Program-made: the position numbers and the translations under genes
NCBI GenBank assembly: GCA_036505535.1
Contig: DASXTI010000179.1
Location: 4,688-68,687, forward strand
Reading direction: 5' to 3'
DNA length: 64,000 nt
Source of the DNA: Thermoanaerobaculia bacterium
Lineage (GTDB): Bacteria; Acidobacteriota; Thermoanaerobaculia; UBA5066; Gp7-AA6
Shown here: positions 782-59,100 of the stretch, piece after piece
Layout: every line of letters starts with the position of its first letter
Numbering within the stretch: the first letter of the stretch is position 1
Notes under the pieces: model-generated
What the model saw: only the letters and a program-made list of their open reading frames with translations
Databases searched by the model: none
Told to the model about the DNA's origin: nothing

Positions 782-1779
782 GCCGGCGTTCTCGCCTCTC
801 CTTCCTCGTGGAGAAAACAGCGAGCCCGGCCGGTTTCCGTCGTATAGAGCTCGGGCTCGCGCCGGTCGCAGGGGGCGAACCGTTCCGGACAGCGCTCGAC
901 GAACGCGCAGACGCCGCTCTCGCGTGCCGAAAGATCCGCGACGGTCCCGGGGATCGCGTCGTACCGCTGACCGTGGTGACGAACCGCCGCCGCGATCCGC
1001 GGTACCGAACGGAGCAGGCCGCGGGTGTAGGGATGGCTCGGAGCCGCAAAGAGCGCGGCGGTTCGTGCCTCCTCGACCACACGGCCCGCATAAAGCACGA
1101 GCACTCGGTCGCTGTGCTCCGCCACGATGCCGAGGTCATGTGTAATCAGGAGGATCGTGAGGCCGTGCAGCCGACGCAGTGAATCGAGCAGCGCCAGCAC
1201 CTGCGCCGCCACGGTGGCGTCGAGAGACGCCGTGGGCTCATCCGCCAGAAGGATCTTCGGACCGGCCGCAAGAGTCATGGCGAGAAACGCTCGCTGTCGC
1301 ATCCCTCCGGAGAGGCGGTGCGGATACTCGCCCAACGCGTGATCCGGGTCCGGAAACGCCACATCGCGCAAGGCGTCGCGCGCGATCCGACGCGCTTCAG
1401 AGCGTGAGACGTTGTGGTGGAGCCGGATCGACTCGACGATCTGGTCTCCGATCGTTCGCACCGGATCGAGAGCCGCGGCGGGCTCCTGGAAAACCAGGCC
1501 GATCCTCGCGCCTCGGACGCCGCGCCATTCGCGGTCCGTCAGACGGAGGAGATTTCTTCCGGCGTGGATCACCCGTCCGCCGATTCGCCCCCCTTCCGGC
1601 ACGAGGCCGAGGATCGCTCGTGCGAGCTGCGTCTTGCCGCATCCGCTCTCCCCCACCACCGCCACCGTTTCGCCGGCTTCGAGCTTGAACGAAATGCCGT
1701 CGACGGCCGGCCGGAGTCTTCCGTTGAGGGGCAGCTCGACGCGAAGATCTTCGACCACCAGCAAAGGTGAGGACCCCAT
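778..1779 (-). CDS. Oligopeptide/dipeptide-type ABC transporter ATP-binding protein (OppD/DppD-like)
   Basis: ORF 778..1848. Motifs GESGCGKTQ (Walker A), LSGGMRQR (signature), LLADEPTASLD (Walker B) and the C-terminal oligopeptide-ABC extension. Start placed at the internal ATG (MGSSPLLVVEDLRVEL), which fits the family N-terminus. GTG 1848 is an alternative start. Confidence 0.85.
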   Translation of the reverse strand: MGSSPLLVVEDLRVELPLNGRLRPAVDGISFKLEAGETVAVVGESGCGKTQLARAILGLVPEGGRIGGRVIHAGRNLLRLTDREWRGVRGARIGLVFQEPAAALDPVRTIGDQIVESIRLHHNVSRSEARRIARDALRDVAFPDPDHALGEYPHRLSGGMRQRAFLAMTLAAGPKILLADEPTASLDATVAAQVLALLDSLRRLHGLTILLITHDLGIVAEHSDRVLVLYAGRVVEEARTAALFAAPSHPYTRGLLRSVPRIAAAVRHHGQRYDAIPGTVADLSARESGVCAFVERCPERFAPCDRREPELYTTETGRARCFLHEEGEARTPA

Positions 1780-1854: not shown

Positions 1855-4374
1855 TCACGAGTTCTTCCGAACCGCCTCGAGATCTCTCACGCGCCGGATC
1901 ACGTCGCGATAGTTCGTGTTGAGCCCGTAGACCTCGAGGAACGTCTTGTAGGCGAGGTCGATGTCGCCGGTGTCCTGATAGACCTGCCCAAGGTCATAGA
2001 GCATGCCCGCGGTCTCGGCTTCTTTGATCGACGGCGTCGCGAGCCCCTTGCGGAACCATTTGATCGCCAGCTGGGGCATTCCCTTCTCCAAAAAGCAATG
2101 GCCGAGCATGCTGCAGCACTCCACGGCGCGGCCCGGATCCTTGCTCGCGAGCTGAAACTCGCCGATCGCTTCGTCGACGAGACCCATCTCCTTGTATGCG
2201 ATGCCCAGGTTGTAGTGGGTTTCGTAGTCCTCGGCCGACAGCTGCTGCTCGACCCCCTTCTTGAACTCGCGGAAGATCTCCTCCAGAGACACCTCCCCCT
2301 GCGGCGCCGAAGCATCCGTGCTCTCCTCGGCGACGGCCTCTTCCGAAAGCTCCTTTTCCAGTTCCTCGGCGAGGTTGAAGAACTTTTGCTCGTCGGCGAA
2401 GAGATTCTCTTCCGCGACGACCGGAACCTCCGGAGTCCGAGTCGCGCCGCTGTCGCCCGCCCGCTGCATCTCGTCCTCGAGAAGATTACCGAGCTGTTCG
2501 TAGGACACGAACTCCGTATCGGCCGGCGTCACCGGTTCCGGTGTGCTCAGGCGTTGGATCGTCGGGGGCGGCCCGCCCGGTTCGGGCTGCGTGAACTCGA
2601 TCCCAGCTTCGTCGAATGGAGCGGGACCCATTTCGGCGGGAGGCGCGGCCGGTTGGCTGACTTCGAACTCCTCGAACGCAACATCCAGTCCCGCGGGAGG
2701 AGGCGGCGCGAGCTCGGAAGCCGGCGGGAACTCCGCACCGGGCGCCTCGAGCCCGCTTCGCGCCAGAACGCGACTGGCGTCGGCCGGGTGGCCGGCCTCG
2801 CGATACGCGGCGGCGAGGGCCTCCGTTTCCCGCTGCAGCGCGGGGTTCCTCGACTCCGCGAGCAGCTCGACCAAACGTTCCCGGGCCTTCAGCAGATCGG
2901 GGCGGCGGCGCAGGAGCGAGAAGAGGCGCTCGATCGCCTTGTCGGACAGGCCGTACTTGGCGAAGACCTCGGCTTCGACGATGAGGGTTTCGAGCTGCTG
3001 GTCGTCGACTGCCCCGCCCTCGACGAGGAGTTCCGCCGACGTCGCGGGCGCAACGTAAGCCGTGGGACCCGAGGGAGGCGCCGGCTCGGACCGGCCGCTT
3101 GCGGGCTCCCACTCGATCGCGGGAACTTTCGGCTGCGGCGCATGAATCGGGCCCGCATCCTCCAAATCGATGATGAGCTCCTGGAACTCGGGAGCCGCCT
3201 CGGCGGAGGCCACGGGCGGCGGCGGTCCGATGTCCTTGAGCCGATTCGCCGCTTCCACGTTGGATGGATCGGCCTCCATGGCGCGCCGGTAGTGTTCCGC
3301 GGCACGGGCCGGGTCGTTGCGCCGCTCCGCCTGTTGTCCGAGAGTCGCGAGCACCCTGGATAAGGCCGGGCGATTGCCTTCGGCCTCCAGCACCTCCGTC
3401 ATCTTCTCGAGAGCGCCGCGCTGCTCCGGATCCGCCGCCAGAATGGGCTCGAGGTAATCGGCCGCGCGCGTGAATTCGCGCCGCGAGACGGCGGCGTCGA
3501 CCGCCGGCGCGATGACCGCAACGGCCTTCTCGAAGGCCTGCTCGTTCATACGGAGCCGGCAGAGGAAGACCCGGGGCGCCTCGGCATGCGCGTCGAGGGC
3601 GAGCGCCTGCTCGGCCGTGCGCAGCGCTTCCGCGCGCTGCCCCGTCTCCAGTTGCGCTTCCGCGATCAACGCCAGGCTCTCGGCGGTCCTCGGCGCCGCC
3701 TTGAGAACCGCCATGGCGGCCGCCGCATTCTTCTGCGCGAGAAGGGAACGGACCAGGTTCTTTTGCGTTTCGGCATCGTCGGGCGAAAGCTCCAGCGCCT
3801 TCTGGAAGACTTGCGCGGCTTCGTCGTGGGCGCCGCGTTTCAACAGCATCGAGCCGATCAGGCCGTACTGCATGACGGCCTGATCCTTCTGGTTGTTGGC
3901 GCGGTAGAGGTCGGCGAGGCGGACCTGGATTCGCAGGTCTGCGGGATCAATCGACGACATCTTCTTGTAGACGGCGATGGCGTCTGCGAGCCGGTTGTTC
4001 TTCTGATAGTGGTCGGCTAAGACCTGGTACTGGCTTCGCGCGTCCTGGACCAACCCCTGCTTGTGGTAGAGGTCCGCGAGCTTGTCGTAGACCTCGAGCT
4101 GCGCCGGGTCGATCTTGTTGATCTTCTTGTAGATCGCGATCGCCTTCAGGAAGAAGCCATCCCGCGAGTAGAAGTCGGCGATCCGCGTAAAGAACGGGAT
4201 CGAATCCGCCGGACGATTCATTCGGACGTAGAGGTCTCCGACTTTGTTCAGCGTCGAGATGTCCTTGGGATTTTCCTCCAGAACGCGCAGGTATTCCTTC
4301 AGCGCCTGGTCGAGCTTGCCCCGGGACAGCAGCTTCTCGGCGGACTGGAGAACCTGTTCGCGGTTGACCGCCAT
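1855..4374 (-). CDS. Large TPR-repeat protein (839 aa): N-terminal and C-terminal TPR arrays separated by a Pro/Glu/Ala-rich low-complexity centre
   Basis: ORF 1855..4374. Repeated TPR-like 34-aa helices (e.g. LGIAYKEMGLVDEAIGEFQLA, LGQVYQDTGDIDLAYKTFLEV). No enzymatic motif recognised. Confidence 0.75.
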   Translation of the reverse strand: MAVNREQVLQSAEKLLSRGKLDQALKEYLRVLEENPKDISTLNKVGDLYVRMNRPADSIPFFTRIADFYSRDGFFLKAIAIYKKINKIDPAQLEVYDKLADLYHKQGLVQDARSQYQVLADHYQKNNRLADAIAVYKKMSSIDPADLRIQVRLADLYRANNQKDQAVMQYGLIGSMLLKRGAHDEAAQVFQKALELSPDDAETQKNLVRSLLAQKNAAAAMAVLKAAPRTAESLALIAEAQLETGQRAEALRTAEQALALDAHAEAPRVFLCRLRMNEQAFEKAVAVIAPAVDAAVSRREFTRAADYLEPILAADPEQRGALEKMTEVLEAEGNRPALSRVLATLGQQAERRNDPARAAEHYRRAMEADPSNVEAANRLKDIGPPPPVASAEAAPEFQELIIDLEDAGPIHAPQPKVPAIEWEPASGRSEPAPPSGPTAYVAPATSAELLVEGGAVDDQQLETLIVEAEVFAKYGLSDKAIERLFSLLRRRPDLLKARERLVELLAESRNPALQRETEALAAAYREAGHPADASRVLARSGLEAPGAEFPPASELAPPPPAGLDVAFEEFEVSQPAAPPAEMGPAPFDEAGIEFTQPEPGGPPPTIQRLSTPEPVTPADTEFVSYEQLGNLLEDEMQRAGDSGATRTPEVPVVAEENLFADEQKFFNLAEELEKELSEEAVAEESTDASAPQGEVSLEEIFREFKKGVEQQLSAEDYETHYNLGIAYKEMGLVDEAIGEFQLASKDPGRAVECCSMLGHCFLEKGMPQLAIKWFRKGLATPSIKEAETAGMLYDLGQVYQDTGDIDLAYKTFLEVYGLNTNYRDVIRRVRDLEAVRKNS

Positions 4375-6408: not shown

Positions 6409-6921
6409 TCACAGATCGAGTAATCCCTCGGGCGGATCGAGAACAATGCGCCGAGTGGCCCTGTCCACGCGGACGACGATGGGATGCGCGAAGGGAACGA
6501 GCACGACCTTCCCGGCCCGAGTTTCCACCGACAGCATCGCTCCGGCCGGTGTCTGCTCGAGCCCTTCCACGCGTCCGAGCCGGTTGCCGCGCACGTCCTC
6601 GCACAGCCAGTCGCGAATCTCGTGGCCATAGAAGAAGCCGTCGGGCGCCGGAAATGCATCCCCGACGGGGACGCAGAGGTCTCCACCCTGAAGGGCGCGG
6701 GCTGCATCGACGTCGGCCACGCCCTCGAAACGAAGGAGAAGCCGCGCGGCGTGCGGCCGAACGCTCGCGATCGTGAGCGTCTTTTGGGCCGCGCCGAGCC
6801 GCCACCGAAGCACCGCACCCGGCTGGAAACGCCCCGGAAAATCGGTGACGACCTCGATGGAGAGCTCTCCGGCCAACCCATGGGGCCTTCGAATTTGGCC
6901 GACGACGAGAAGCTCCGGCAT
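6409..6921 (-). CDS. rimM: 16S rRNA processing protein RimM
   Basis: ORF 6409..6921 (LVVGQIRRPHGLAGELSIEVVTDFP...). Conserved rpsP-KH-rimM-trmD order. Confidence 0.9.
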   Translation of the reverse strand: MPELLVVGQIRRPHGLAGELSIEVVTDFPGRFQPGAVLRWRLGAAQKTLTIASVRPHAARLLLRFEGVADVDAARALQGGDLCVPVGDAFPAPDGFFYGHEIRDWLCEDVRGNRLGRVEGLEQTPAGAMLSVETRAGKVVLVPFAHPIVVRVDRATRRIVLDPPEGLLDL

Positions 6922-6957
6922 TCCGAGGATTTCACGCGGCGGGCGCGTGGCGAGCTT

Positions 6958-7194
6958 TCAGTCGCGGACGCGGATGACGACGCGCTTGCCGCGAGCCGTC
7001 GCGGCCGCCGAAACGAACGCACGCAGAGCCCGGACGGTGCGCCCCTCCCGGCCGATCAGGCGGCCGCGGTCGGCCTCCGGCACCTCGATGTCGTAGACCG
7101 CCGTCTTCCCTTCAAAGCTTTCGGACACTCGGGCCTCATCGGGACGATCCGACAGCCGGCGAACGACCGTATCGATCAAGCGCTTCATCGCCAA
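6958..7194 (-). CDS. KH-domain RNA-binding protein (UPF0109/YlqC family)
   Basis: ORF 6958..7194. Motif IGREGRTVRALRAFV (GXXG KH loop). Typical position between rpsP and rimM. Confidence 0.85.
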   Translation of the reverse strand: MAMKRLIDTVVRRLSDRPDEARVSESFEGKTAVYDIEVPEADRGRLIGREGRTVRALRAFVSAAATARGKRVVIRVRD

Positions 7195-7197
7195 GCT

Positions 7198-7446
7198 CTA
7201 CGCCCCCGGCGCCGGTTCGGGACGCTCGAGGAGCGACTGAACCGTCGGCGATACTCCGGCTCCCCTGCCGATCCAGTGGCGGGCGCGCTCGCGATCGAAG
7301 GAGATCGTGACCGGATCGGTGACCGGATCGTAGGAGCCGAGCTCCTCCAAGACTTCGGCGCGCGCCGTCCGGCGCGAGTCCGAAACGACGATCCGGTAGT
7401 AGGGTCGGTTGCGGGCGCCCATGCGGCGCAGGCGAATTTTCAGCAT
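7198..7446 (-). CDS. rpsP: 30S ribosomal protein S16
   Basis: ORF 7198..7446, MLKIRLRRMGARNRPYYRIVV... Confidence 0.95.
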   Translation of the reverse strand: MLKIRLRRMGARNRPYYRIVVSDSRRTARAEVLEELGSYDPVTDPVTISFDRERARHWIGRGAGVSPTVQSLLERPEPAPGA

Positions 7447-17549: not shown

Positions 17550-18550
17550 GCGGGGAGCGCCGCGTCACGCTGATCCGCGGCGATGGAATCGGACCGGAAG
17601 TCGCCGACGCCGTTCTCACGATCTTGGAGTCGGCGGGCGCACCTCTCTCCTTCGAGGAAGTCGTCGTCGGGCAGGAGGCCGAGAAGACCGAGGGAAATCC
17701 CTTGCCTGCGCGGGCGCTCGATTCGATCCGGAACAACCGCGTCGCCCTGAAGGGTCCCGTCGGAACGCCGGTCGGAAAGGGATTCTCCTCCGTCAACGTC
17801 CGGCTGCGTCAGACGCTCGAGCTCTACGCCAATCTCCGGCCCGTCAAGAACCTGCCGGCCGTCGACAGCCGATTCCAAAATGTGGACCTCGTCGTCGTGC
17901 GGGAGAACACCGAGGATCTTTACAGCGGCCTCGAACACATCGTGGTGCCCGGAGTCGTCGAGTCATTGAAGATCATCACGGCGAAGGCCTCGACCCGCAT
18001 CGCGCGGTACGCCTTCGACTATGCGCGAAAAAATGGCCGGCGCCGCGTCACGGCGGTCCACAAGGCAAACATCATGAAGCTCTCCGACGGTCTGTTCCTC
18101 GACTGCTTTCGCCAGGTGGCCGAGGATTACCCGGACATCACCGCCGACGATCGAATCGTGGACGCGGCCTGTATGCGCCTGGTCATGAGCCCCGACGCCT
18201 TCGACGTCCTCCTCCTGGAGAACCTCTATGGCGACATCGTGTCCGATCTGGCGGCCGGGTTAGTGGGCGGGCTCGGGCTCGTTCCGGGCGCCAACCTCGG
18301 GTCGGACGCGGCGATCTTCGAGGCCGTTCATGGAACCGCTCCCGACATCGCGGGACAGGATCGCGCCAACCCGACGGCGCTGCTGATGTCCGCGATCCTC
18401 ATGCTGCGTCACCTCGACCTCCCCGAGCACGCCGACTCGGTCGAGAAGGCGTTGCTCTCGACCCTTCGGGCGGGCATCAAGACCCCCGATATTGGCGGAA
18501 CGGCGGGCACGCGGGAGTTCGCGAGAGCGGTGGCGGAGAGGCTGAGATGA
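17546..18550 (+). CDS. Isocitrate/isopropylmalate dehydrogenase family protein, most like NAD-dependent isocitrate dehydrogenase
   Basis: ORF 17624..18550, plus upstream in-frame homology (RRVTLIRGDGIGPEVADAVLTIL) that has no ATG/GTG/TTG. The only plausible start is CTG 17546, which overlaps the upstream TGA. Motifs RENTEDLYSG and NLYGDIVSDLAAGLVGGLG. Confidence 0.85.
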   Translation: MSGERRVTLIRGDGIGPEVADAVLTILESAGAPLSFEEVVVGQEAEKTEGNPLPARALDSIRNNRVALKGPVGTPVGKGFSSVNVRLRQTLELYANLRPVKNLPAVDSRFQNVDLVVVRENTEDLYSGLEHIVVPGVVESLKIITAKASTRIARYAFDYARKNGRRRVTAVHKANIMKLSDGLFLDCFRQVAEDYPDITADDRIVDAACMRLVMSPDAFDVLLLENLYGDIVSDLAAGLVGGLGLVPGANLGSDAAIFEAVHGTAPDIAGQDRANPTALLMSAILMLRHLDLPEHADSVEKALLSTLRAGIKTPDIGGTAGTREFARAVAERLR

Positions 18551-18637
18551 TTGCCGATTGGCGATTTCCGATTGACGATTGAGGGCTCGTCTCGGTGATG
18601 GCTTCAATCGACAATCATCAATCGGCAATCGCCAATT
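18549..18637. repeat. Heptad-repeat hairpin (5 x GATTGNN, loop, 5 x NNCAATC) filling the gap between convergent stops
   Basis: 18549-18583 reads GATTGCC GATTGGC GATTTCC GATTGAC GATTGAG. 18603-18637 reads TTCAATC GACAATC ATCAATC GGCAATC GCCAATT. Confidence 0.85.
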
Positions 18638-18944: not shown

Positions 18945-19571
18945 TTGCGAAATCAGGGTAGCACAGGGGTCCAAGCGGGCCGGTGGCCCGGCAGTCCGGA
19001 CGAGGAGCTCTGGTTCGGGCGTTCGCTCGAGCCAGAGGACCTCTTCGGCCGCCGAGCGCCCCTGGAAGTCGAGATCGGCAGCGGCAAAGCGCGGTTCTTG
19101 ATCCAAGCAGGTCGGGCGAATCCGGCGCACGACTTCGTCGGCATCGAACGCTCGCTCGCCTACTACCGGACCTGTCGGGATCGCGTGACTCGCGCGAGCC
19201 TCCCCAACGTCCGGATTCTGCGCGCCGACGGTCGGACCTTCGTCGAGACGGCGCTCGCTCCGCGGTCGGTTCACGCGTTGCACATCTACTTTCCGGACCC
19301 CTGGCCCAAGAAGAGGCAGAAGAAGCGTCGCTTAATCGACGGCGTCTTTCTGGAACTCGTGGCTTCCCGGCTGGAGGCGGGAGGGCTTCTTCGCATCGCC
19401 ACGGACCATCCCGACTATGGCTCGGGCCTCGGTTCGCTCTTACAGACCGTGCCCGCCTTCGAGCGTCTCGTCTGGGATGCTCTCCCCGCGCCACCCACGA
19501 CCCACTACGAGATCAAGTACCGCGCAGAAGGAAGACCGATATGGAGGTATCTGCTGAGAAAAGGTTCCTAG
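18945..19571 (+). CDS. trmB: tRNA (guanine46-N7)-methyltransferase
   Basis: ORF 18945..19571 (TTG start). Motifs LEVEIGSGKARFL, LHIYFPDPWPKKRQKKRRL and ATDHPDY. Confidence 0.85.
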   Translation: MRNQGSTGVQAGRWPGSPDEELWFGRSLEPEDLFGRRAPLEVEIGSGKARFLIQAGRANPAHDFVGIERSLAYYRTCRDRVTRASLPNVRILRADGRTFVETALAPRSVHALHIYFPDPWPKKRQKKRRLIDGVFLELVASRLEAGGLLRIATDHPDYGSGLGSLLQTVPAFERLVWDALPAPPTTHYEIKYRAEGRPIWRYLLRKGS

Positions 19572-19630
19572 TTTCTGGTTACTGGTTTTCTGGTTCCGTC
19601 GACGTCGACCAGAAACGAGAAACCTGAAAC
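19571..19630. repeat. Heptad-repeat hairpin (TTNCTGG units, GTCGACGTCGAC centre, CNNGAAA units)
   Basis: Left arm TTTCTGG TTACTGG TTTTCTGG. Right arm CCAGAAA CGAGAAA CCTGAAA. Lies between the convergent trmB and pgsA stops. Confidence 0.8.
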
Positions 19631-19645
19631 CCGCTACCATCGGCT

Positions 19646-24635: not shown

Positions 24636-24725
24636 AGGAGGAGTGATTTGTGATTTGTGATTGGGGCGGAAAAGTCTTCTTCGCGCTGATCACCAATCAC
24701 CAATCTCCAATCACAAATTCCTCCT
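24636..24725. repeat. Heptad-repeat hairpin (GATTTGT/GATTGGG units versus ACCAATC/TCCAATC/ACAAATT units, flanked by AGGAGG...CCTCCT)
   Basis: Left arm 24636-24666, right arm 24688-24725. Lies between convergent stops 24630-32 and 24736-38. Confidence 0.8.
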
Positions 24726-32400: not shown

Positions 32401-32449
32401 GCGTCTTGCGTCTTCGCTTTCACGTTTCACGTCTCGCGTCTCATGTCTT
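32401..32449. repeat. Tandem heptad array (7 x RCGTYTY) at the 3' end of rsmE; the partner arm (about 32360-32381) is weak
   Basis: Reads GCGTCTT GCGTCTT CGCTTTC ACGTTTC ACGTCTC GCGTCTC ATGTCTT. The rsmE stop (32441-43) lies inside the array. Confidence 0.6.
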
Positions 32450-33166
32450 ACGGGCGAGCGCCGCCTGAGCGAGTATCAGCGCGGCGACCGCGGCCGTCTC
32501 GGCTCGAAGCTTCCCCGCGGCCAGCGACACAATCCTCCATCCGGAGGCGATGGCCCCGTCGCGTTCCCGGTCGGACCATCCTCCCTCCGGCCCCACCAGC
32601 AGGGCTGTCGACTCCGCGCGGAGCAAGGATGGAAAGACCTCGCCGCTCGGATCGAGCATGAGCCGGTTCTTCGAGGACTCGCTCCGAAAGATCTCGGAAA
32701 GAGCGACGGGTCCCACGATCGCCGGCCACCTCGCCCGCTCCGACTGCTTCGCCGCCTCCCGCACGACGCGTTCGAGCCGCGGGACGAGGCGCTGGCTCGC
32801 GCGAAAGCTCTGTGTGCGCTCGCTCGTCAAGAGTGTGAGGCGCGCGGCTCCCAACTCGGTTGCCTTCTCCGCAACCCAGCCGAGCCGCTCCCCGCGAATC
32901 GCCGCGACACCGAGAGATATCGGCGCGTGCGCTTGGACAGACGCGACTCGAATCGACTCGACGAACACTTCGAGCTCTCGCCGCTGCCGCCGGGTCAGCC
33001 GCCCGACCGCCTCCCGTCCACTGCCGTCGACGAGCACGATGGCGTCGCCCGACGCCAGCCGTCGCGCGTGCGCGTGAGCTACCTCTTCGCCGGTGATCCG
33101 GCAGGCCGCGCCGGCTGCCGGAAGCCTGTCGACTATGAGACGCGCGCCAGGCTCAGACAGATCCAC
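32441..33166 (-). CDS. rsmE: 16S rRNA (uracil1498-N3)-methyltransferase
   Basis: ORF 32441..33364 trimmed to GTG 33166 (homology begins ARLIVDRLP...GEEVAHAHARRLASGDAIVLVDGSG). C-terminal SPOUT knot LLVGPEGGWSDRE. Overlaps the prmA end. Confidence 0.8.
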   Translation of the reverse strand: MDLSEPGARLIVDRLPAAGAACRITGEEVAHAHARRLASGDAIVLVDGSGREAVGRLTRRQRRELEVFVESIRVASVQAHAPISLGVAAIRGERLGWVAEKATELGAARLTLLTSERTQSFRASQRLVPRLERVVREAAKQSERARWPAIVGPVALSEIFRSESSKNRLMLDPSGEVFPSLLRAESTALLVGPEGGWSDRERDGAIASGWRIVSLAAGKLRAETAAVAALILAQAALARKT

Positions 33167-33963: not shown

Positions 33964-33970
33964 GAGTGCT

Positions 33971-34060
33971 GAAGATTGAGGATTGAAGATTGAGGATTGA
34001 AGATTAGGCGATTGAGGTGAGACATTTCCGTGACTCCTCAATCATCAATCTTTAATCATT
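33971..34060. repeat. Heptad-repeat hairpin between dnaJ and prmA (6 x GATTGAR-type units versus CCTCAATC ATCAATC TTTAATC)
   Basis: Left arm 33971-34017 (includes GATTGAGGATTGAA x2). Right arm 34036-34060 contains the dnaJ stop codon. Confidence 0.85.
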
Positions 34061-35189
34061 CGTCTCCGAATAGCTTCTTCGCCTTCTTGAACACATTCGC
34101 CTTCTCCTTTCCGACGGGGGCGCCAATAAGGTCCGCGTACTGCCGCAAGATCTCCTTCTCCTCCTTGGACGGAGACTCCGGCACCTGAACGCCGATTCGG
34201 ACAACGAGATCCCCCCGCCCGCTCCGGCCCAGACGTCCCATGCCCTTGCCTCTCAGCCGCAATTCCGAGCCGGCGGCGGTCCCCGGCGCGACCGCGATCT
34301 GTTCGGGTCCATCGAACGTGGGGACCGAGACCTCACCCCCGAGCACGAGCGTTGGAAAGGGAAGATCGAGGGAAACGACGACATCGTCCCCCTCACGGGA
34401 GAACGCCTCGTCCTCGGCCACCGTCAGCACGACGTACAGGTCGCCGGCGGGTCCGCCGTTCGGACCCGCGTCCCCCTCGCCCGTTAGGCGCAGCCGCGAG
34501 CCCGACTCCACGCCCGCGGGGATTCGTATCGTGAGCTCCTTTTTGCCGCGCCGACGCCCCTCGCCGTGGCAGGCCCTGCAGGGTTTCTCGATGAGCCGGC
34601 CCTCCCCCTGGCAATTCGCGCAGGGGCGCGTGAGAGTGAGAAACCCCTGTGAAATGCGTTGGCGGCCGCGGCCACCGCAAGCGGGACATATTTTCGGCCG
34701 CGAGCCCGGCTCCGCACCCGTGCCGCCGCAGCTGTCGCAACGCTCAAAGCGTGAGATCGCGATCGGAGCCTCCATGCCGAACGCCGCGTCGCGAAACGAG
34801 ATCTCCATCCGATAGACGAGGTCGCTCCCCACCGGTGGTTCGCGCGCCCCGCCGAATCCGCCCCCCGACGCGAATCCGAAGAGACCGCTGAAGAGATCCG
34901 AAAAGTCGGCGAAAACGGATGGGTCGAATCCCTGGAACCCCCCGAAACCGGGGCCGTTTGCGGCAAAGGCGGCGTGACCGAAGCGGTCGTAGCGCGCCCG
35001 CTTCTCGGGATCGGAGAGAACCGCATAAGCCTCGGAGGCCTCCTTGAACTTCTCGGCGGCATCGGGATTGTTGGGGTTGCGGTCCGGGTGGTGAGTCAGC
35101 GCGAGCTTGCGATAGGCAGACTTCAGGGCCGACTCATCCGCGTCGCGGTTGACGCCCAGAATCTGGTAATAGTCGCGTCGTTCCGACAT
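34056..35189 (-). CDS. dnaJ: Molecular chaperone DnaJ
   Basis: ORF 34056..35258 trimmed to ATG 35189 ([13 protein letters not shown]...HPDRNP). G/F region and four CxxCxGxG zinc motifs. Confidence 0.95.
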
Positions 35190-35196
35190 AGAAAAA

Positions 35197-35280
<84 letters not shown>

Positions 35281-35283
35281 TAT

Positions 35284-37113
35284 CTAGCCCGCCGCGGCTC
35301 CGCCCGCTCCCGCACGAGCGAGCATGACGCGGGTCAAAACCTTACTGACACCCTGCATGTCGAAGATCGCTTCATTGAAGGCCTCTCGCGAATCGCCTGT
35401 GGCGATCTCGCGCGAGCGCTTCAGGGTCTCCTCGATTCGCTGCCGCTCGTCGTCGGCCAAGCCCGAGCCGAACTCCGAGAGCACCCGCTCATTCGATGAG
35501 ATCATGCCTTCCAGGCGGTTCTTGATCGCGGCAATCTCCCGACGCTCATGATCGGCCTCGGCGAAAGCCGAAGCCTCCTTGATGATCTTGTCGATCTCGG
35601 TCTGCGACAGGCCCCCGGCCGGGTTGATCTGCATCCCCTGGGCCTTGCCCGTCGCCAGATCGCGCGCGGAGACGTTGACGATTCCGTTCGAGTCGATTGC
35701 GAAAGTGACTTCGATCTGCGGCACCCCGCGGGGCGCCGCCGGAATGCCGACGAGCTCGAAGCGCCCCAGCGACTTGTTGTCCTTGGCGATGTCGCGCTCC
35801 CCCTGCAGGACATGGATCTCGACGACGGACTGGTTGTCGGCGACGGTCGTGAAGACCTTCGTGTTCTTCGTCGGGATCGTGGAGTTCCGCTCGATCAGCT
35901 TCTCGAAGACGCCCCCATGCATCTCGATGCCGAGCGAGAGTGGCGTGACATCGAGGAGGACGACGTCCTTGATCTCTCCCTTCAACACGCCCCCCTGGAT
36001 CGCGGCGCCGATCGCGACGACCTCGTCCGGGTTGATGTCCCGATTGGGCTCGCGGCCGAAGAGCTCGGCAACCATCCGCTGGACCTTCGGCGTGCGCGTC
36101 TGTCCGCCGACCAGAATCACCTGATCGACGTCCGACGGCTTCAATCCCGCGGCGGCGAGCGCGTCGAGGCACGGCGCCGCGGTCCGATCGATCAGATCCG
36201 CAACGAGGCTCTCGAAGCGCTCCCGCGTCAGCGTCCGGTTGATGTGCTTGGGGCCCGAGGCGTCGGCGGAGATGAAGGGCAGGGTGAGCGTCGTTTCCGT
36301 CGCCGTCGAGAGCTCGCACTTGGCCTTCTCGGCGGCCTCCTTCAGGCGCTGCAGCGCCATGCGGTCCTGGCGCAGATCGATTCCGGTCGACTTGCGGAAG
36401 TCGTCCAGAAGCCAGTCCATGATCTTCTTGTCGAAGTCTTCCCCGCCGAGGTAGGTATCGCCCGCGGTGGCCTTGACCTCGTAGATTCCATCGCCCAACT
36501 GCAGAATCGAGATATCGAACGTGCCGCCGCCGAGGTCGTACACGGCGACGATCTCGCTGCCTCGCCGGTCGAGGCCGTACGCCAGCGAAGCGGCCGTCGG
36601 CTCGTTGATGATGCGGAGGACCTCGAGCCCTGCGATCCGCCCGGCGTCGCGCGTCGCCTGACGCTGCGCATCGTCGAAGTACGCCGGAACGGTGATGATC
36701 GCCTCGGTGATTTCGTCGCCGAGAGCCTCTTCCGAGAACTCCTTGATCTCCCGCAGAATGAAGGCCGAGATCTCCTCGGGGCTGTACTCGCGTGCCCGAG
36801 CGCGGATCTTTACGTCGCCGTTGACGGCGCGCACGATCTCGTAGGGGAGCACCTCCCGGGCGTGCTGCGTCTCTTCGGCGTCGTATTTCCGGCCGACCAG
36901 ACGCTTCACCGCGAAGACCGTGTTCATCGGGTTCGTGATCGCCTGGCGCTTGGCGATCTGCCCCACCAGCCGCTCGCCGTCCTCGGTGAAGCCGACGATC
37001 GAGGGGGTCGTGCGGCTCCCCTCGCGGTTCGTCAATACCTGAGGCGTCGCGCCCTCGACCACGGAGACGCAGCAGTTGGTCGTACCGAGGTCGATGCCCA
37101 GGATCTTGCCCAC
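35284..37113 (-). CDS. dnaK: Molecular chaperone DnaK (Hsp70)
   Basis: ORF 35284..37113, [16 protein letters not shown]...DLGGGTFD...; full-length Hsp70. Confidence 0.98.
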
Positions 37114-44766: not shown

Positions 44767-45609
44767 GTGAAAAAGTACAACACGATCATCTTCGTTCCCC
44801 ATGCCCGGGCGCGATTTCGCAAGCTCACCATCTCCACGCGCTTCCTCGGCCTCTCGGCCGTCGCCGCCGCGACCCTCTTCGTCGCGGCGATTGCGTTTGC
44901 ATGGGCCTTCTTCGCGTCGGCTCGGAGCGACCATCAGTACCGTCTCGCGATGGCCGAGAACCAGAAGCTGCGCTCGACGTCGGCCCTCCTCCACCAGCGC
45001 CTCGACGGGATCTCCAAGCAGCTTTCCGATTTCGAAGCACGGACGCGGCGGCTCGCGATCGTCGCCGGACTGGCTGATTCCGTGCGCGGCGGCGTGGGCG
45101 GACCCGGAGCGACCCAGGGCCGAATGGACTCCCTCTCGGATCAGAGTGCCCTCCTCTCCTCGCGCCTCTCCCTGCTGGAAGCCGAGTTCTCGAAGCGCTC
45201 GACCTTGATCGCGACCACTCCAACGGTCTGGCCGGTGCATGGCGTCGTCAACTCGGGATTCGGCATGCGGACCGATCCGTTCACCGGCCTGCCGGCTTAC
45301 CACGAAGGCGTCGACATCTCGACCGCCCGAAGCGAGCCGGTGCTCGCCACCGCGGACGGAATCGTCCGGAGGAGCGGCTGGGCCGGCGAGTACGGAAAGT
45401 CGATCGAGATCGCCCATGGCGACCGGTATCAGACCCTCTACGGCCACCTCGAGGAAATGCTCGTGCAGGAGGGGGACGAGGTCCGCCGTGGGGATCGCGT
45501 CGGTCTCGTTGGCTCGACCGGCCGCTCGACCGCACCGCATCTTCATTATGAGGTGCATGCCGACGAGCATCCGGTCAATCCGCTCGAGTACATTCTGGAG
45601 AGTCGGTAG
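44767..45609 (+). CDS. M23 family metallopeptidase (EnvC/NlpD-like, N-terminal TM and coiled coil)
   Basis: ORF 44767..45609 (GTG, SD GAAGGAG). Motifs HEGVDI and GSTGRSTAPHLHYEVH. Confidence 0.88.
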   Translation: MKKYNTIIFVPHARARFRKLTISTRFLGLSAVAAATLFVAAIAFAWAFFASARSDHQYRLAMAENQKLRSTSALLHQRLDGISKQLSDFEARTRRLAIVAGLADSVRGGVGGPGATQGRMDSLSDQSALLSSRLSLLEAEFSKRSTLIATTPTVWPVHGVVNSGFGMRTDPFTGLPAYHEGVDISTARSEPVLATADGIVRRSGWAGEYGKSIEIAHGDRYQTLYGHLEEMLVQEGDEVRRGDRVGLVGSTGRSTAPHLHYEVHADEHPVNPLEYILESR

Positions 45610-45668
45610 TCTGTAGTTGGGACCAGCCGACTACCGACTACCGACTACCGACTACCGACTACCGACTG
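45601..45668. repeat. Heptad-repeat hairpin (TAGTCGG-type units versus 5 perfect plus 1 variant CCGACTA) at the M23 peptidase 3' end
   Basis: 45601-45621 reads AGTCGG TAGTCTG TAGTTGG G and includes stop TAG 45607-09. 45627-45668 is (CCGACTA)x5 plus CCGACTG. Confidence 0.85.
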
Positions 45669-50038: not shown

Positions 50039-50114
50039 ATTGCCGATTGAAGATTGACGATGGAAGATTGAAAGCCCCGAACAAATCGTCAATCTTCAAT
50101 CGGCAATCATCAAT
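50039..50114. repeat. Heptad-repeat hairpin with a perfect 22-bp stem between convergent guaB and rarA
   Basis: 50040-50061 (TTGCCGATTGAAGATTGACGAT) is exactly complementary to 50085-50106. The right arm extends into the rarA stop (50110-12). Confidence 0.9.
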
Positions 50115-51501
50115 TCTTCCTCTTCTTCCTCTTCTCCTTCTCCTCTTCCTCCTTGGCCCACTTCTGCTGTCGGAGCTTGAGCACCGCCTCGAGCCGCCGG
50201 GACAGCTCCGCCTCCTCACCGGAAGCGCGCGGACGATAGTAGCGCCGGCCGCGCAGGCTCTCGGGAAGACACTCGATTCCTCCCACTCCCTCCGGCTCCG
50301 CATGCGCATAGCGGTAGCCGCGCCCATATCCGACTTCGCGCATCAGCTTCGTGACGGCATTCCGGATGACGGGCGGCACCGGTTCCGCCGGCTTCTCGGC
50401 GACGTCTTTCTTCGCCTCCCCCTCCGCTTGGTAAAGGGCGTTCGACTTCGGCGCCAGAGCGCAGTAGACGGCGCCCTGCGCCAGGGCGAGCGATCCCTCG
50501 GGCATTCCGAGGAAATCGAACGCGTCCTTGGCGTCGAGCGCGACGCGCAACGCCCGCGGATCGGCCAGACCGACGTCCTCCGAGGCGAAGCGCACGATCC
50601 GCCGGGCCAGGTACAGCGGCTCCTCCCCCGCCTCGAGCATCCGGACGAGCCAGTAGATCGTGGCGTCGGGGTCCGACTCCCGCATCGACTTGTGGAGCGC
50701 GGAGATCAAGTTGTAATGCTCTTCCCCCGCCTTGTCGTAAAGAAGGACCTTGCGTTGCAGCAGGTCCCGCAGCTTTCCGACCTCGATTGTCTTGGCCTTG
50801 GCCGCCTCGGCGTCGGCCGCCGCCGCCTCGAGCAGGTTCAGCGCGCGCCGCGCATCACCGCCCGAGGCTTGCGCGATGAAGGAGAGGGCCTCATCGTCGA
50901 GCCGAAAGTCTCGCGCGCCGAGGCCGCGCGAGATGTCCCGCAGCGCGCGCTCGACGATCCGAGCAATCGCCTCGGGAGCCAGAGGCTCTAAGACCACAAC
51001 CTTGCAGCGGGAGAGCAGCGCGCCGTTCAATTCGAACGACGGGTTCTCCGTCGTCGCCCCCACCAGCACGATGTCCCCCGACTCGACGTACGGCAGGAAG
51101 ACGTCCTGCTGCGAGCGGTTGAAACGGTGGATCTCGTCGAGGAACAAGATCGTGCGCTTGCCATGTCGCGCGCGCATGCCACGTCCCTGTTCCAACACCT
51201 CGCGCATTTCCTTCACGCCCGTCGCTACCGCCGAGTAGGAGAGGAACAGCGAGGACGTCTGTGATGCGATCAGTCGCGCAAGGGTCGTCTTCCCGACGCC
51301 GGGAGGGCCCCACAGGATGAGCGACGGCACCCGGTCCTCGGCGATCGCCCGGCGAAGAAAACCATTGGTGCCGACGACCTCCGCCGGCCCCTCCACCTCG
51401 TCGAGGGAGCGTGGGCGCATCCGGTCCGCGAGCGGCGTGGCAAGAGGAAAAACGTCGCCGGTAGCCCGCTTCGGTTCTTCCTCGAAAAGCCGGCCGCTCA
51501 C
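50110..51501 (-). CDS. rarA: Replication-associated recombination protein A (AAA+ ATPase RarA/MgsA)
   Basis: ORF 50110..51603 trimmed to GTG 51501 (overlaps the upstream TGA). Motifs PLADRMRPRSLDEV, GPPGVGKTT, LFLDEIHRFN and the MgsA C-terminal domain. Lys/Glu-rich tail. Confidence 0.9.
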   Translation of the reverse strand: MSGRLFEEEPKRATGDVFPLATPLADRMRPRSLDEVEGPAEVVGTNGFLRRAIAEDRVPSLILWGPPGVGKTTLARLIASQTSSLFLSYSAVATGVKEMREVLEQGRGMRARHGKRTILFLDEIHRFNRSQQDVFLPYVESGDIVLVGATTENPSFELNGALLSRCKVVVLEPLAPEAIARIVERALRDISRGLGARDFRLDDEALSFIAQASGGDARRALNLLEAAAADAEAAKAKTIEVGKLRDLLQRKVLLYDKAGEEHYNLISALHKSMRESDPDATIYWLVRMLEAGEEPLYLARRIVRFASEDVGLADPRALRVALDAKDAFDFLGMPEGSLALAQGAVYCALAPKSNALYQAEGEAKKDVAEKPAEPVPPVIRNAVTKLMREVGYGRGYRYAHAEPEGVGGIECLPESLRGRRYYRPRASGEEAELSRRLEAVLKLRQQKWAKEEEEKEKRKKRKN

Positions 51502-51761
51502 TTCGCCTCCAGAGCCTTTCGGCACTCGGGGGAGCAGACGGCAACGATCTCTTCCCCGCGCCTCCCCGAGAGCGCCAGTCGCCGATCGATCCAGGTCCCG
51601 CATACCGGATCCCGCACCATTTCCTCTTCGCGCGTGCCGCCCGGCCGAACGCCCGCACGTGAACCCGGCCGCCCGAGAACGGCCGCCAGGAAGATTCGCA
51701 GCCCGCGCAGAACGACCAGAAACAGGAAGACCGCGAAAAGAAGCAGGACGACGCGGACCAT
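51498..51761 (-). CDS. Small membrane protein with a C-terminal YHS/TRASH-type Cys motif
   Basis: ORF 51498..51761. One TM segment, then DPVCGTWI...VAVCSPECRKAL. ATGA overlap upstream and GTGA overlap downstream. Confidence 0.6.
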   Translation of the reverse strand: MVRVVLLLFAVFLFLVVLRGLRIFLAAVLGRPGSRAGVRPGGTREEEMVRDPVCGTWIDRRLALSGRRGEEIVAVCSPECRKALEAK

Positions 51762-56116: not shown

Positions 56117-59100
56117 TCAGCCGAGAACCACCGTAATCCGGTGCTCGCTCCCATCGTCGGCGAGAGGGATCCACCCGGTTGCCGCGGGCTCGCCGTCGAG
56201 CGAAATGGTCGCGATGCCCCGCGTGACGCCGCGCGGGTTCTCGACCGTCAGGCGGTAGCGAGCCGAGTGATACCGGAAGAGGATCTCGTATCCGGGCCAG
56301 GCGCGGGGGATACACGGATCGAGGTACAGCCGCGTACCCCTCAACCGGAAGCCCAGAATCCATTCCACACCCGCACGGTACATCCAGCCGGCCGATCCGG
56401 TGTACCAGGTCCAGCCTCCGCGCCCGACATGCGGCCGCTCGGAGTAGACGTCGGCCGCCACGACAAAAGGCTCCACCTTGTAGCGGTGGAGGCCCGAACG
56501 CGTGCTGGAGTGACCGATGGGATTGACGATGGCGAAAAGCTCGCCGGCCTTGTCTCCCTCGCCCAGCGCCGCGAACGCGGCGATCGTCCAGAGGGCGGCG
56601 TGTGTGTACTGACCGCCGTTCTCCCGGACGCCCGGCAGGTATCCCTTCACGTAACCTGGCGAGAGCGTCGTCCGGTCGAACGGAGGCGCGAAGAGAAGGA
56701 CGAGGCCGTCTCCCCGTTGCACCAGGTACTCCTCGACCGCGACCATCGCCCGCCGGCTTCGCTCCGCGTCTCCCGCGCCTGAGAGCACCGCCCAGGACTG
56801 GGCAATCGAATCGATGCGGCACTCATCGTTCGACGCGGATCCGAGCGGCGTTCCATCATCGAAGAAGGCGCGGCGATACCAGCTCCCGTCCCAGCCATCT
56901 CGTTCGAGGGCGGTCTTCAGGGTATCTAAGTGAGCCCGCCACTTGTGCGCGCGCTCGAGCTCCCCACGCTCCTCGGCGATGGGGGCAAACTGACGAAGAT
57001 TCGTGTGCAGAAACCAGCCGAGCCAGATGCTCTCACCCTTTCCGGCGGATCCGACGCGGTTCATCCCATCGTTCCAGTCTCCGGTACCCATCAGCGGCAG
57101 ACCGTGACGCCCGACGGCGAGGCTGCGGTCGAGGGCGCGGGCGCAATGCTCGAAGAGCGACGCCGTTTCCGCCGAGATCTTCGGCTCGAAATATCGCTCG
57201 GTTTCCTCGGGCCGAAGCGGCTCCGCCTCGAGGAAGGGGACCGGCGCGTCGAGAACACTGCGGTCGCCCGTGATCTCGACGTAGTGCGCGGTCGCGTAGG
57301 GCAGCCAGAGCAGGTCGTCCGAGATGCGCGTGCGCACTCCCTTCCCCGAAGGAACGTGCCACCAGTGCTGAACGTCACCCTCCCGAAACTGTCGCGCGGC
57401 CGCGCGCAGCAGATGCTCGCGCGTCACCTCGCGTCGGGCCACCGTCAGAGCCATCACGTCCTGGAGCTGGTCGCGGAAACCCCAGGCGCCGCCGGACTGA
57501 TAGAACGCGGCGCGGGCCCGCACGCGGCAAGCGAGGGTCTGATAAAGAAGCCATCCGTTCAACATCAGATCCATGGCTCGGTCGGGAGTCCGAACCTGCA
57601 GGGCCCCGAGCGTGTCGTCCCACTCGCGAGTCACTTCGCCGAGCGCCTCGTCGAGGTTCCGCAAGCGATAGCTTGCGACGAGCCGCCGCGCCTCCCCGGC
57701 ATCCGCGCCCTCGCCGAGCAGAAAGACGATCTCTGTGCGTTGTCCCGGCGCCAGCCGGAGGAACGTCTGCAATGCCGCACACGGATCCAGGCCGGCGCCC
57801 GCCCGTTGCGACAGCGCCGCGCCGGCCGCCAGGCCCGCCGGCGCGTCGAGGCCGCCGTTTCGCCCCAGGAACTCGGTGCGGTCGGCCGTCCAGGCGGTCT
57901 GCCGTCCGCCGAGGTCGGCGAACGCAACCCGCCCCGCGTATTCTTCGTTCCACGGGTTGCGAGCGAAGAGGGCGCCCGTTCCGCGGTCGAGCTCGGTCAG
58001 AACGAACGGCGCGGTGGCGGATCTCCGCGGGCCTAGGACCCACTCCGCGTAGGCGGTTACCGAGAGCGCTCGCGCCTGACGCGACCGGTTCTCGATCGAG
58101 AGCCGGGAAATCTTCACCGGGTCTTCTCGCGGAACGAACACGAAGAGGTCGAGAGCGATGCCGCGGCTTTCGTGCTCGAAACGGCTGTAGCCCCGGCCGT
58201 GCCTCACCACGTAGGGCCATTCATCGCGGATCGGCAGCGCGGTCGGGCCCCAGATCTCCCCGGTGTCTTCGTCGCGCACGAGCAGGGCCTCGCCTGGCGA
58301 GTCGCCGACGGGGTCGTTCGACCAGGGGGTGAGCTGGTTCTCGCGGCTGTTGACAGCCCACGTGTAGCCGGAGCCCGACTCGGAGATGAGAGTACCGAAA
58401 GAAGAATTCGCGAGGACGTTGACCCAGGGCGCCGGCGTCCACTGTCGTTCTCCGAGGATCGTGACGTACTCGCGTCCTCCCCCGGAAAAGCCTCCGAGGC
58501 CGTTGAAAAACTCTAGCGCGAGGCGGGGCTGCGGCACCTCGGCGGCGGGGATCTGAGCGGCCGCAGGCTGGGGCGGCCGGGCGGCGGGAACCACACGCAG
58601 GAGGCGCACCATCTGCTCCGCAAGAGAGCCGTGCCGGGAGAGCAGAATGACCCGCGCGGCGGTTCGTAGCGCGTCGCGTTCCTCTCCGGAGAGCAGCTCT
58701 CCCCGCAAGACGAAGATTCCGCCCGGCGATTCTTCCGCAATGCCGGCTGCCCGGCGCGCGGCGCGCGCCAGGGATTCCAGGACGGCCGTGAGGTCCGGGG
58801 CGTACGACGGCGGTTGCTCGTTGATGATGACGAGATCGACGTCGAGACCCTTCAGCCTCCAATACTCGTGGGCACGAAGGAGTTGCCGGGCAATTTCCTG
58901 GTCTTCTACATGGTCGATGCGGAGAAGCACGATCGGCCGGTCACCCGAGATGCCATGCCGCCACAGAGTGGATGGTCCCCGACGATTTCGTTTGAGGACC
59001 TCTGCGGGCGCGCGCAGACTCGGGTCGGAATAGAGAATGCGCGTCCCGAGCCGCTGAAAGAGATGAGCCTCGTCGGCGGAGATGCCGAGATGATTGAGCT

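Follow-up and report, generated by a model that had tools for sequence, protein, structure and literature searches.

The systems closest to the elements treated here are the intervening sequences (IVS) of 23S rRNA; to our knowledge, the S23p protein that they encode has no known function, being a four-helix bundle without known catalytic activity. Short tandemly repeated repetitive (STRR) heptanucleotide repeats were reportedly described in cyanobacteria by Mazel et al. in 1990. In Coxiella burnetii, the IVS in helix 45 of the 23S rRNA forms a 28-bp stem that is cut in mid-stem by RNase III, and an S23p open reading frame (ORF) is located in its loop (Warrier et al. 2016, PMC4990558). A Shine-Dalgarno-like (SD-like) AGAAGA is followed there by GACAGAT heptamers, the number of which varies among strains, and the S23p protein of Xanthomonas, Xcc0516, forms a homopentameric toroid (PMC4990558). 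In X. campestris and X. axonopodis, 70-75 convergent GGGAATC pairs per genome were found and explained by G-quadruplexes (Rehm et al. 2015, PMC4692102). The supplementary table of that study puts repeat 15 across the start of XCC0516, whose product is a PF05635 protein, and the S23p/PF05635 gene family is not mentioned by its authors (PMC4692102). Paired repeats of 7-9 nt in classes 1-3 (e.g. MTYCTGA x5), placed on opposite strands in intergenic regions, were described in Geobacter metallireducens (Aklujkar et al. 2009, PMC2700814). They were present in one species and missing from its congener, and they were not connected with a gene family or with RNA hairpins (PMC2700814). For the TAACTGA repeats of Beggiatoaceae and Cyanobacteria, cold-shock proteins, S1 and CsrA were suggested as binders (MacGregor 2015, PMC4679880). 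We analyzed the period-7 hairpins in a 64-kb stretch of DNA from a Thermoanaerobaculia bacterium (hereafter the window) and compared them with cassettes in which a PF05635 (S23p) gene is bracketed by inverted heptamer arrays.

The hairpins of the window were mostly built from units that, exactly or within one mismatch, also form the arms of such cassettes elsewhere in the source genome, and we consider it reasonably probable that they are gene-less relatives of a PF05635/S23p cassette-like element. Four PF05635 loci were found in the source genome (G000; other G-numbers are congeners), with Pfam E-values of 2.5e-37 to 2.4e-12. No other of the 41 genomes searched in the genus had as many. Inverted heptamer arrays bracketed all four genes. 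Four of the five unit types of the window doubled as PF05635 arms elsewhere in the genome. The units at 45601 were the same as those in the left arm of C19, and GATTGNN (35197) was identical to the arms of C148. The units at 19571 (CTGGTTT family) and 32401 (CGTCTTY) were one mismatch away from the arms of C123 and C39, respectively. We filed the window copies as gene-less relatives and not as full members because their loops contained no gene, while the same units were gene-bearing elsewhere.

The association was also observed across the genome. Among 650 arrays, 338 were within one mismatch of a cassette arm, compared to 84 expected from shuffled units. Each of the genome's own four cassettes matched 36-120 gene-less arrays, and fifteen foreign cassettes matched 2-61. 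For eight of nine cassettes, the share of matching gene-less arrays peaked in the cassette's own genome (mean 0.197 vs 0.053), although the p-value is too favourable because the genomes are related. In each of five genomes, gene-less arrays tracked the resident cassettes, and gene-less copies numbered about 50 per gene-bearing copy. In addition, all 12 PF05635 genes fetched from congeners had heptamer arms, each with its own unit. A single-protein scan gave 80 genes spread over many phyla, among them Patescibacteria, Gemmatimonadota, Planctomycetia and several classes of proteobacteria; an inverted heptamer pair was present at 53 of these genes, one array at 22 and none at five. Array density was sampled in seven genomes, 400 kb each. 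There were 72 arrays in the source genome with its four genes and 25-36 in four congeners with one to three genes; in two congeners without PF05635, there were four AT-containing arrays each and no pairs.

The four PF05635 paralogues shared just 14-30% mutual identity. The closest solved structure to the C19 protein was 2GSC (Xcc0516; five chains, E 3e-21), and an RNase III gene was present in the genome. The PF05635 gene of C39 was broken by an in-frame TGA in addition to the frameshift. While this cassette is in decay, the family of its arms survives in gene-less arrays. The assembly was 87% complete and contained no 23S gene in which an IVS could have been found. No RVT_1 gene was found in this assembly, and a retro-element route through a partnership of a bAvd-like protein with a reverse transcriptase was rejected on this basis.

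Based on the design of the cassettes, the full element would consist of a small PF05635 gene, encoding a bAvd-like four-helix bundle, within two inverted arrays of 4-5 heptamers. The differing heptads would be separate lineages of this element class, several of which coexist in this genome, and the design would be common to the loci because the loci belong to one class. The window was scanned with Tandem Repeats Finder (TRF), which gave eight period-7 loci, and these were folded as RNA and compared with shuffled sequences (z-scores). The coordinates are collected in Table 1.

Table 1. Period-7 loci of the window and PF05635 cassettes of the source genome.
Feature	Position	Location	Units and architecture	RNA fold
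Focal hairpin	about 19571-19631	between convergent trmB and pgsA	arms (TTTCTGG)x3 / (CNGAAAC)x3 around GTCGACGTCGAC; CTGGTTT family	
GATTGNN/NNCAATC hairpin	18549-18636	whole gap between stop codons of leuB-like and ferredoxin genes		-42 kcal/mol, z -4.2
GTGATTT/AATCACN hairpin	24636-24725		AGGAGGA...TCCTCCT frame, 26-nt loop; GTGATTK family	-44.6 kcal/mol, z -5.0
One-armed (G/A)CGT(C/T)T(C/T) array	32401-32452		direct repeats only	like shuffles (z -0.4, +0.4, +0.1)
GATTGAR hairpin	33970-34059	dnaJ stop codon to prmA start codon	left arm with 14-nt super-period	z -3.4
dnaK/dnaJ hairpin	35197-35280	dnaK/dnaJ	one side (ATTGCCG)x6 perfect, other (CAATCNN)x3.6	z -5.1
Asymmetric hairpin	about 45601-45668	M23 peptidase gene / secA	three degenerate AGTCGGT vs six perfect CCGACTA	z -5.3
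GATTGNN hairpin	50039-50114	between convergent genes	23-bp perfect stem	-36.3 kcal/mol, z -7.4
C19 cassette	PF05635 match 3822-4133		arm units TAGTCGG / ACCAACT	
C123 cassette	PF05635 match 7055-7279		arm units GTTTCAG / AACCTGG	
C39 cassette	PF05635 match 6795-7057, frameshifted		arm units CGGAAGA / CGTCTTC	
C148 cassette	PF05635 match 1329-1628		arm units ATTGCCG / AATCGGC	

Seven of the eight loci formed imperfect hairpins, each arm comprising 3-6 tandem heptamers. Their loops were 4-40 nt long and contained no gene, and no T-run followed the stems. A preliminary description of this DNA had proposed the same arm/loop/arm layout for every locus. It was confirmed for seven loci, including the AGGAGG...CCTCCT-framed hairpin at 24636-24725, the TAGTCGG/CCGACTA hairpin at 45601-45668 and the GATTGNN hairpins at 18549, 33970, 35197 and 50039. 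The folds of these six gave z-scores from -3.4 to -7.4, with only three of the six right-arm units paired at 45601. The layout did not hold for 32401, which was a direct array. One CGGAAGA-like unit was left upstream of it at about 32364, and this array is probably a decayed hairpin. No Rfam family was found in the whole window at the gathering threshold. A CT-rich run (TTC and TCCTCT repeats) was observed at 50114-50153, straight after the hairpin at 50039-50114. It is located in the 3' end of a minus-strand ORF (50110-51603), where it would give a Glu/Lys-rich protein tail. An open frame of >2,600 codons was also observed on the minus strand at 56117-64000, continuing past the window end.

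Two convergent genes, for a TrmB-type methyltransferase and a CDP-alcohol phosphatidyltransferase (Pfam), bordered the focal hairpin, which lay between their stop codons. It read TAG, TTTCTGG, TTACTGG, TTTTCTGG and TTCC, then GTCGACGTCGAC, then CAGAAAC, GAGAAAC and CTGAAAC, so that its heptad arms and centre were as first described. TRF assigned period 8 to the left arm (3.1 copies) and period 7 to the right arm (3.4 copies). The fold of the plus strand was -26 kcal/mol with z -2.6, and one of 200 shuffles was equally good; the minus strand gave -23.3 kcal/mol with z -1.3. The hairpin was genuine but modest, with a mismatch about every 5-7 pairs. BLAST matches to it were found on five other contigs of the genome.

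The whole genome (3.6 Mb, 66% GC, 258 contigs) was surveyed for similar arrays. Strict runs of period 7 numbered 320, and every other period from 4 to 12 gave at most 17. TRF detected 727 arrays genome-wide, with 213 adjacent pairs in inverted orientation. A few unit families made up most of the arrays, with 24 hairpins for CTGGTTT, about 35 for AGTCGGT and about 28 for GTGATTT. The unit families were genome-specific. The GATTGNN triplet GATTGNNGATTGNNGATTG matched 303 times in the source genome, had no match in 34 of 40 congeners and had at most 13 matches in any other. Within the CTGGTTT family, the loops were mostly unrelated. Part of the GTGATTT family shared a common loop of about 28 nt (GGCGAGAARGTCACGCTGNCGCCCTG) together with AGGAGGA...TCCTCT flanks. 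This loop was partly self-complementary (C116:10240, C117:870, C108:17443, C224:9155 and window 24663-24688). Four loops of the AGTCGGT family (C29:17754, C39:11638, C62:37749 and C4:14914) held an AT-rich palindrome of the form ATATATTAGTAnTTGCTAATATAT, which appears to be one small element nested within another.

These families bear on the origin of the repeats. The preliminary description had suggested that slippage created unrelated repeats locally and that self-complementarity was then selected for, or else that an arm was copied in inverted orientation. The argument was that sequence would be shared within a mobile family and was not shared among these loci. This could not be maintained, as each of the named units was a dispersed multi-copy family (24-35 hairpins) and one family even had its loop and flanks in common. 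The view that the heptads were unrelated was correct in that one design, a G-rich heptamer arm, a loop and a C-rich one, recurred with differing units, even at one junction between species. It was not correct in that 171 unit classes linked into one cluster through single-base steps. Aligned by rotation, the units shared a loose NNHGRTT core (4.0 bits vs 2.5-2.8 for shuffled units). The regularity first noticed was real but wrongly bounded, each unit type being by itself an ordinary dispersed family.

The slippage part of the suggestion was borne out. Compared to its sister G063, G019 had three extra TTGAGTC units in the left arm and an unchanged right arm, and the two differed by 14 nt at another junction. 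Perfect x6 arrays facing degenerate arms in the window and the mostly unrelated CTGGTTT loops also fit a local origin. Arms lengthen and shorten independently by unit slippage. Arm length was 4-5 units in 76% of cases, and the copy numbers of left and right arms were uncorrelated (rho -0.06). Unit number thus did not change symmetrically; the change was one-sided. When right arms were reverse-complemented, the match of a left arm to its own partner was 3.5 to 6 times better than to that of another species, and therefore the arms co-vary as whole arrays. The share of common 6-mers was 0.11-0.16 within an element, compared to 0.03 between species. Co-variation was in this sense observed, but not at the level of single positions. 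Two permutation tests for mirrored unit order and compensated variable positions were negative. When the unit order was permuted in one arm in the source genome, the hairpins were not weakened (-37.9 kcal/mol vs -37.2 observed). Inverted copying of an arm predicts a mirrored variant order, and it was not supported by this result. The variable unit positions showed neither mirroring nor compensation, and pairing depends on the core of the unit. In addition to the dominance of a few non-random, genome-specific families, the local model was opposed by the G-rich arm, which came first in 192 of 213 pairs regardless of gene orientation, and by the background array level in congeners of equal composition. 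The local-origin model was largely refuted, and we regard it as very unlikely.

The placement of the hairpins relative to genes was then considered. The arrays lay outside genes, in agreement with the non-coding origin first proposed from the period, and the hairpins started at a median of 3 nt past the stop codon. Hairpins occupied 74/452 convergent gaps (16%), 121/2049 tandem gaps (6%) and 9/465 divergent gaps (2%), and these gap statistics are approximate because the gene caller was home-made and based on GC3. The first arm was richer in G than in C, and this order was equal in ++, -- and +- gaps. Lone arrays were likewise G-rich on the sense strand of the preceding gene. Transcription-coupled mutation bias was rejected as the cause, since the rule was the same in all three gap types. 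Stop codons in three frames were also rejected as the reason for a G/T-rich first arm, as the commonest unit, GATTGCC, contains no stop triplet. The 12 nt ahead of the first arm were purine-rich, and the 12 nt past the second arm were their mirror image. An SD-like 4-mer was present in 34% of left flanks (the anti-SD form in 3%), and its mirror-image form in 27% of right flanks. A consensus scan for U-tract terminators over 20 kb gave 16 matches, compared to 13 +/- 3.4 by shuffling. There was no excess, and none of the matches coincided with a hairpin.

This placement would fit stem-loops selected by the host at gene 3' ends, such as terminators, attenuators or barriers to mRNA decay. The 7-nt unit would then be the footprint of a host single-stranded RNA-binding protein, for example a cold-shock protein, and PF05635 genes would merely lodge there. 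The start just past stop codons, the ranking of convergent over tandem over divergent gaps, the lack of U-tract terminators above shuffle expectation in 20 kb and the narrow arm length all support it. A conserved 5-base core with two free positions resembles a binding motif, and cold-shock proteins, S1 and CsrA have already been proposed for the TAACTGA heptamers (PMC4679880). The dnaK-dnaJ spacer also supports it, as it was occupied in 18 of 20 congeners. However, the unit families differed between species that have the same housekeeping proteins, and they followed the resident PF05635 cassettes. Two congeners were almost without arrays, and the stems had no U-tract after them. Moreover, congeners had no hairpin at most of these junctions, where stop codons abutted or overlapped and no conserved need is visible. 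We consider host-selected stem-loops unlikely.

The orthologous junctions were compared in 20 congeners, and the synteny of the window from 17.6 to 37.2 kb was kept across the genus. At the trmB/pgsA junction, the hairpin was present in the source genome only and absent from all 20 congeners, most of which had overlapping stop codons. A target-site duplication was not visible there, with relatives just 75-80% identical. At the leuB/fer2 and dnaK/dnaJ junctions, heptamer hairpins were found with units that differed between species, including AGTCGAC, GGGTCNA, GAGTTNA, GGTGACA, GATTTGT, CAGTTNT and GAGTCTT. Other species had a GC-rich non-heptamer spacer, another repeat or nothing at these two junctions. 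At dnaK/dnaJ, 13 congeners had a heptamer hairpin and five had a GC-rich non-heptamer spacer; the spacer was not extracted for two. Control of the dnaK:dnaJ ratio may be a conserved function of the dnaK-dnaJ spacer (window 35187-35286). The dnaJ/prmA junction (33970) had GATTTCG-type hairpins in four congeners, and the junction of the 32401 array had a full AACGGAA hairpin in G010. At leuB/fer2 in G017, G020, G036, G021 and G031, a different non-heptamer repeat containing GGGATCCCTCGG...CCCTCGGGATGGAGTTGTA was observed, which looks like a second dispersed palindromic family of the genus.

The C148 cassette was identified as an insertion because its flanking genes abut in most congeners. Cassettes as well as hairpins are insertions, placed at junctions where the genes of relatives abut. 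G025, G008 and G032 had a 1.7-kb insertion at the junction orthologous to C148:1245-1751. In G025, from which ORFs were taken, one of the long frames reads like an ECF-type sigma factor. The C148 junction appears to be an insertion hot spot.

We also considered palindromes of the repetitive extragenic palindrome (REP)/REPIN type or MITEs (transposable elements of the miniature inverted-repeat kind), moved in trans by a REP-associated tyrosine transposase (RAYT, IS200/IS605-type Y1) or another transposase. Dispersed, extragenic and genome-specific hairpin families whose presence varied between species fit such elements, and three Y1_Tnp matches were found in the genome. However, the Y1_Tnp counts in 41 congeners were unrelated to arrays. 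G026 (five), G006 (four) and G032 (four) were array-poor, and G001, G020, G021, G023 and G031 had hairpins with zero Y1_Tnp. A RAYT/Y1 transposase was rejected as the mobiliser on the lack of this correlation. In addition, the arms were tandem heptamers in variable number and not a fixed REP unit, and the target-site duplication was not seen at the 19571 junction. We therefore consider transposase-driven palindromes highly improbable.

The strict 7-bp register with its conserved core could also indicate sites for a protein that binds double-stranded DNA (IHF/HU, for example, or a ribbon-helix-helix protein of the omega repressor kind), serving chromosome structure or partition. The AATCAC(A/C) units at 24689-24718 fit WATCACW, the 7-bp heptad that the omega repressor binds. 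The paired heptanucleotides of Geobacter metallireducens were interpreted as sites of the global regulators IHF/HU (PMC2700814). In contrast, one genome held many unit families here, and these were tied to gene 3' ends and avoided the promoter-containing divergent gaps. The strand-symmetric G-first layout and the link to the RNase III-processed rRNA IVS indicate RNA. We give this explanation hardly any weight.

The reading of the window hairpins as gene-less relatives of S23p cassettes, which we prefer, has to be weighed against several observations that speak against it. The focal unit GGTTTCT was one base off the C123 arms (GGTTTCA, GGTTCCA). The genomes compared are relatives and not independent samples. 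BLAST detected no sequence common to the loops of gene-less hairpins and the resident cassettes' interiors, and thus there was no sign of a MITE-like internal deletion. For the GTGATTK family (24636; 66 pattern matches), a gene-bearing copy was not found in the genome, and this family was also present in G021 and G022, where PF05635 was not found. Neither G031 nor G017 gave a PF05635 match, yet both had heptamer hairpins in the syntenic region, which meant that the gene was dispensable for hairpin persistence. Protein distance and arm distance were compared for 13 cassettes (Mantel r 0.12, p 0.18), and an overall co-variation of the two was rejected. Arms were shared only by the closest protein pairs, which may be orthologous loci. 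Finally, reverse causation is possible, with genes inserting into the loops of existing hairpins.

If the hairpins are relatives of these cassettes, their transcribed stems (about 28-35 bp) could, by analogy with the rRNA IVS, serve at gene 3' ends as substrates of RNase III or as barriers to decay. The stems may occupy the places of the ordinary GC-rich stem-loops of other species. More speculatively, a pentameric S23p might bind its own heptamer array with one subunit per unit, and this binding might drive the spread or retention of matching hairpins. In its full form, each S23p paralogue would recognize its own unit as a pentamer, every subunit contacting one heptamer. Protein and arms together would be a transposase-free selfish module by which hundreds of matching gene-less hairpins are seeded and maintained at the ends of genes. 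We regard this full form as possible but doubtful. If true, the selfish module would give a single explanation for the heptamer repeats (STRR, GGGAATC, TAACTGA and similar) and the rRNA IVS.

The heptamer repeats of cyanobacteria, Xanthomonas, Geobacter and Beggiatoaceae have been unexplained for decades, and the evidence here ties repeats of this kind to S23p in one genome and across its genus. An old descriptive puzzle thereby becomes testable through S23p binding, RNase III cutting in mRNAs and a transposase-less spread to hundreds of gene ends. The result also matters for annotation, as hairpins occupy the expected terminator positions in such genomes. The repeats and the rRNA IVS are both described in the literature that could be searched, and we found no paper in it that links PF05635 to genome-wide heptamer hairpins.

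Compared to the known systems, the cassettes were most like the rRNA IVS of Coxiella, Leptospira and Brucella, with heptamer stems of about 28 bp, a PF05635 gene in the loop and a purine-rich, SD-like lead. Unlike the rRNA IVS, which are located in helix 9, 25 or 45 of the 23S rRNA, all loci here were between protein-coding genes, the window copies were gene-less and several unit lineages were present in one genome. RNase III cleavage has been demonstrated for the IVS, whereas for the hairpins here it is suggested by analogy only. The Xanthomonas repeats were likewise intergenic, near stop codons and rare between divergent ORFs, with about four units preferred (PMC4692102). However, that study treats one unit type, which has G-tracts, whereas the units here were without G-tracts, and the dominant ones (GATTGNN, GTGATTT, CTGGTTT and AGTCGGT) contained no GGG. 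The paired sites of Geobacter, likened here from the published description only, resemble our hairpins in having several tandem classes. In the Beggiatoaceae genome, the TAACTGA repeats are often located upstream of start codons, and only a single inverted set is reported (PMC4679880). The STRR and TAACTGA repeats resemble the arrays here as tandem heptamers that are numerous between genes, have several unit types in a genome and are without a known function, and they differ in being mostly direct arrays. REP/REPIN elements are likewise genome-specific families of palindromes outside genes, which fold into long hairpins and differ in presence among relatives through gain and loss. Unlike them, the elements here had heptamer arms of variable number, no Y1 association and a four-helix bundle as the product of the partner gene.

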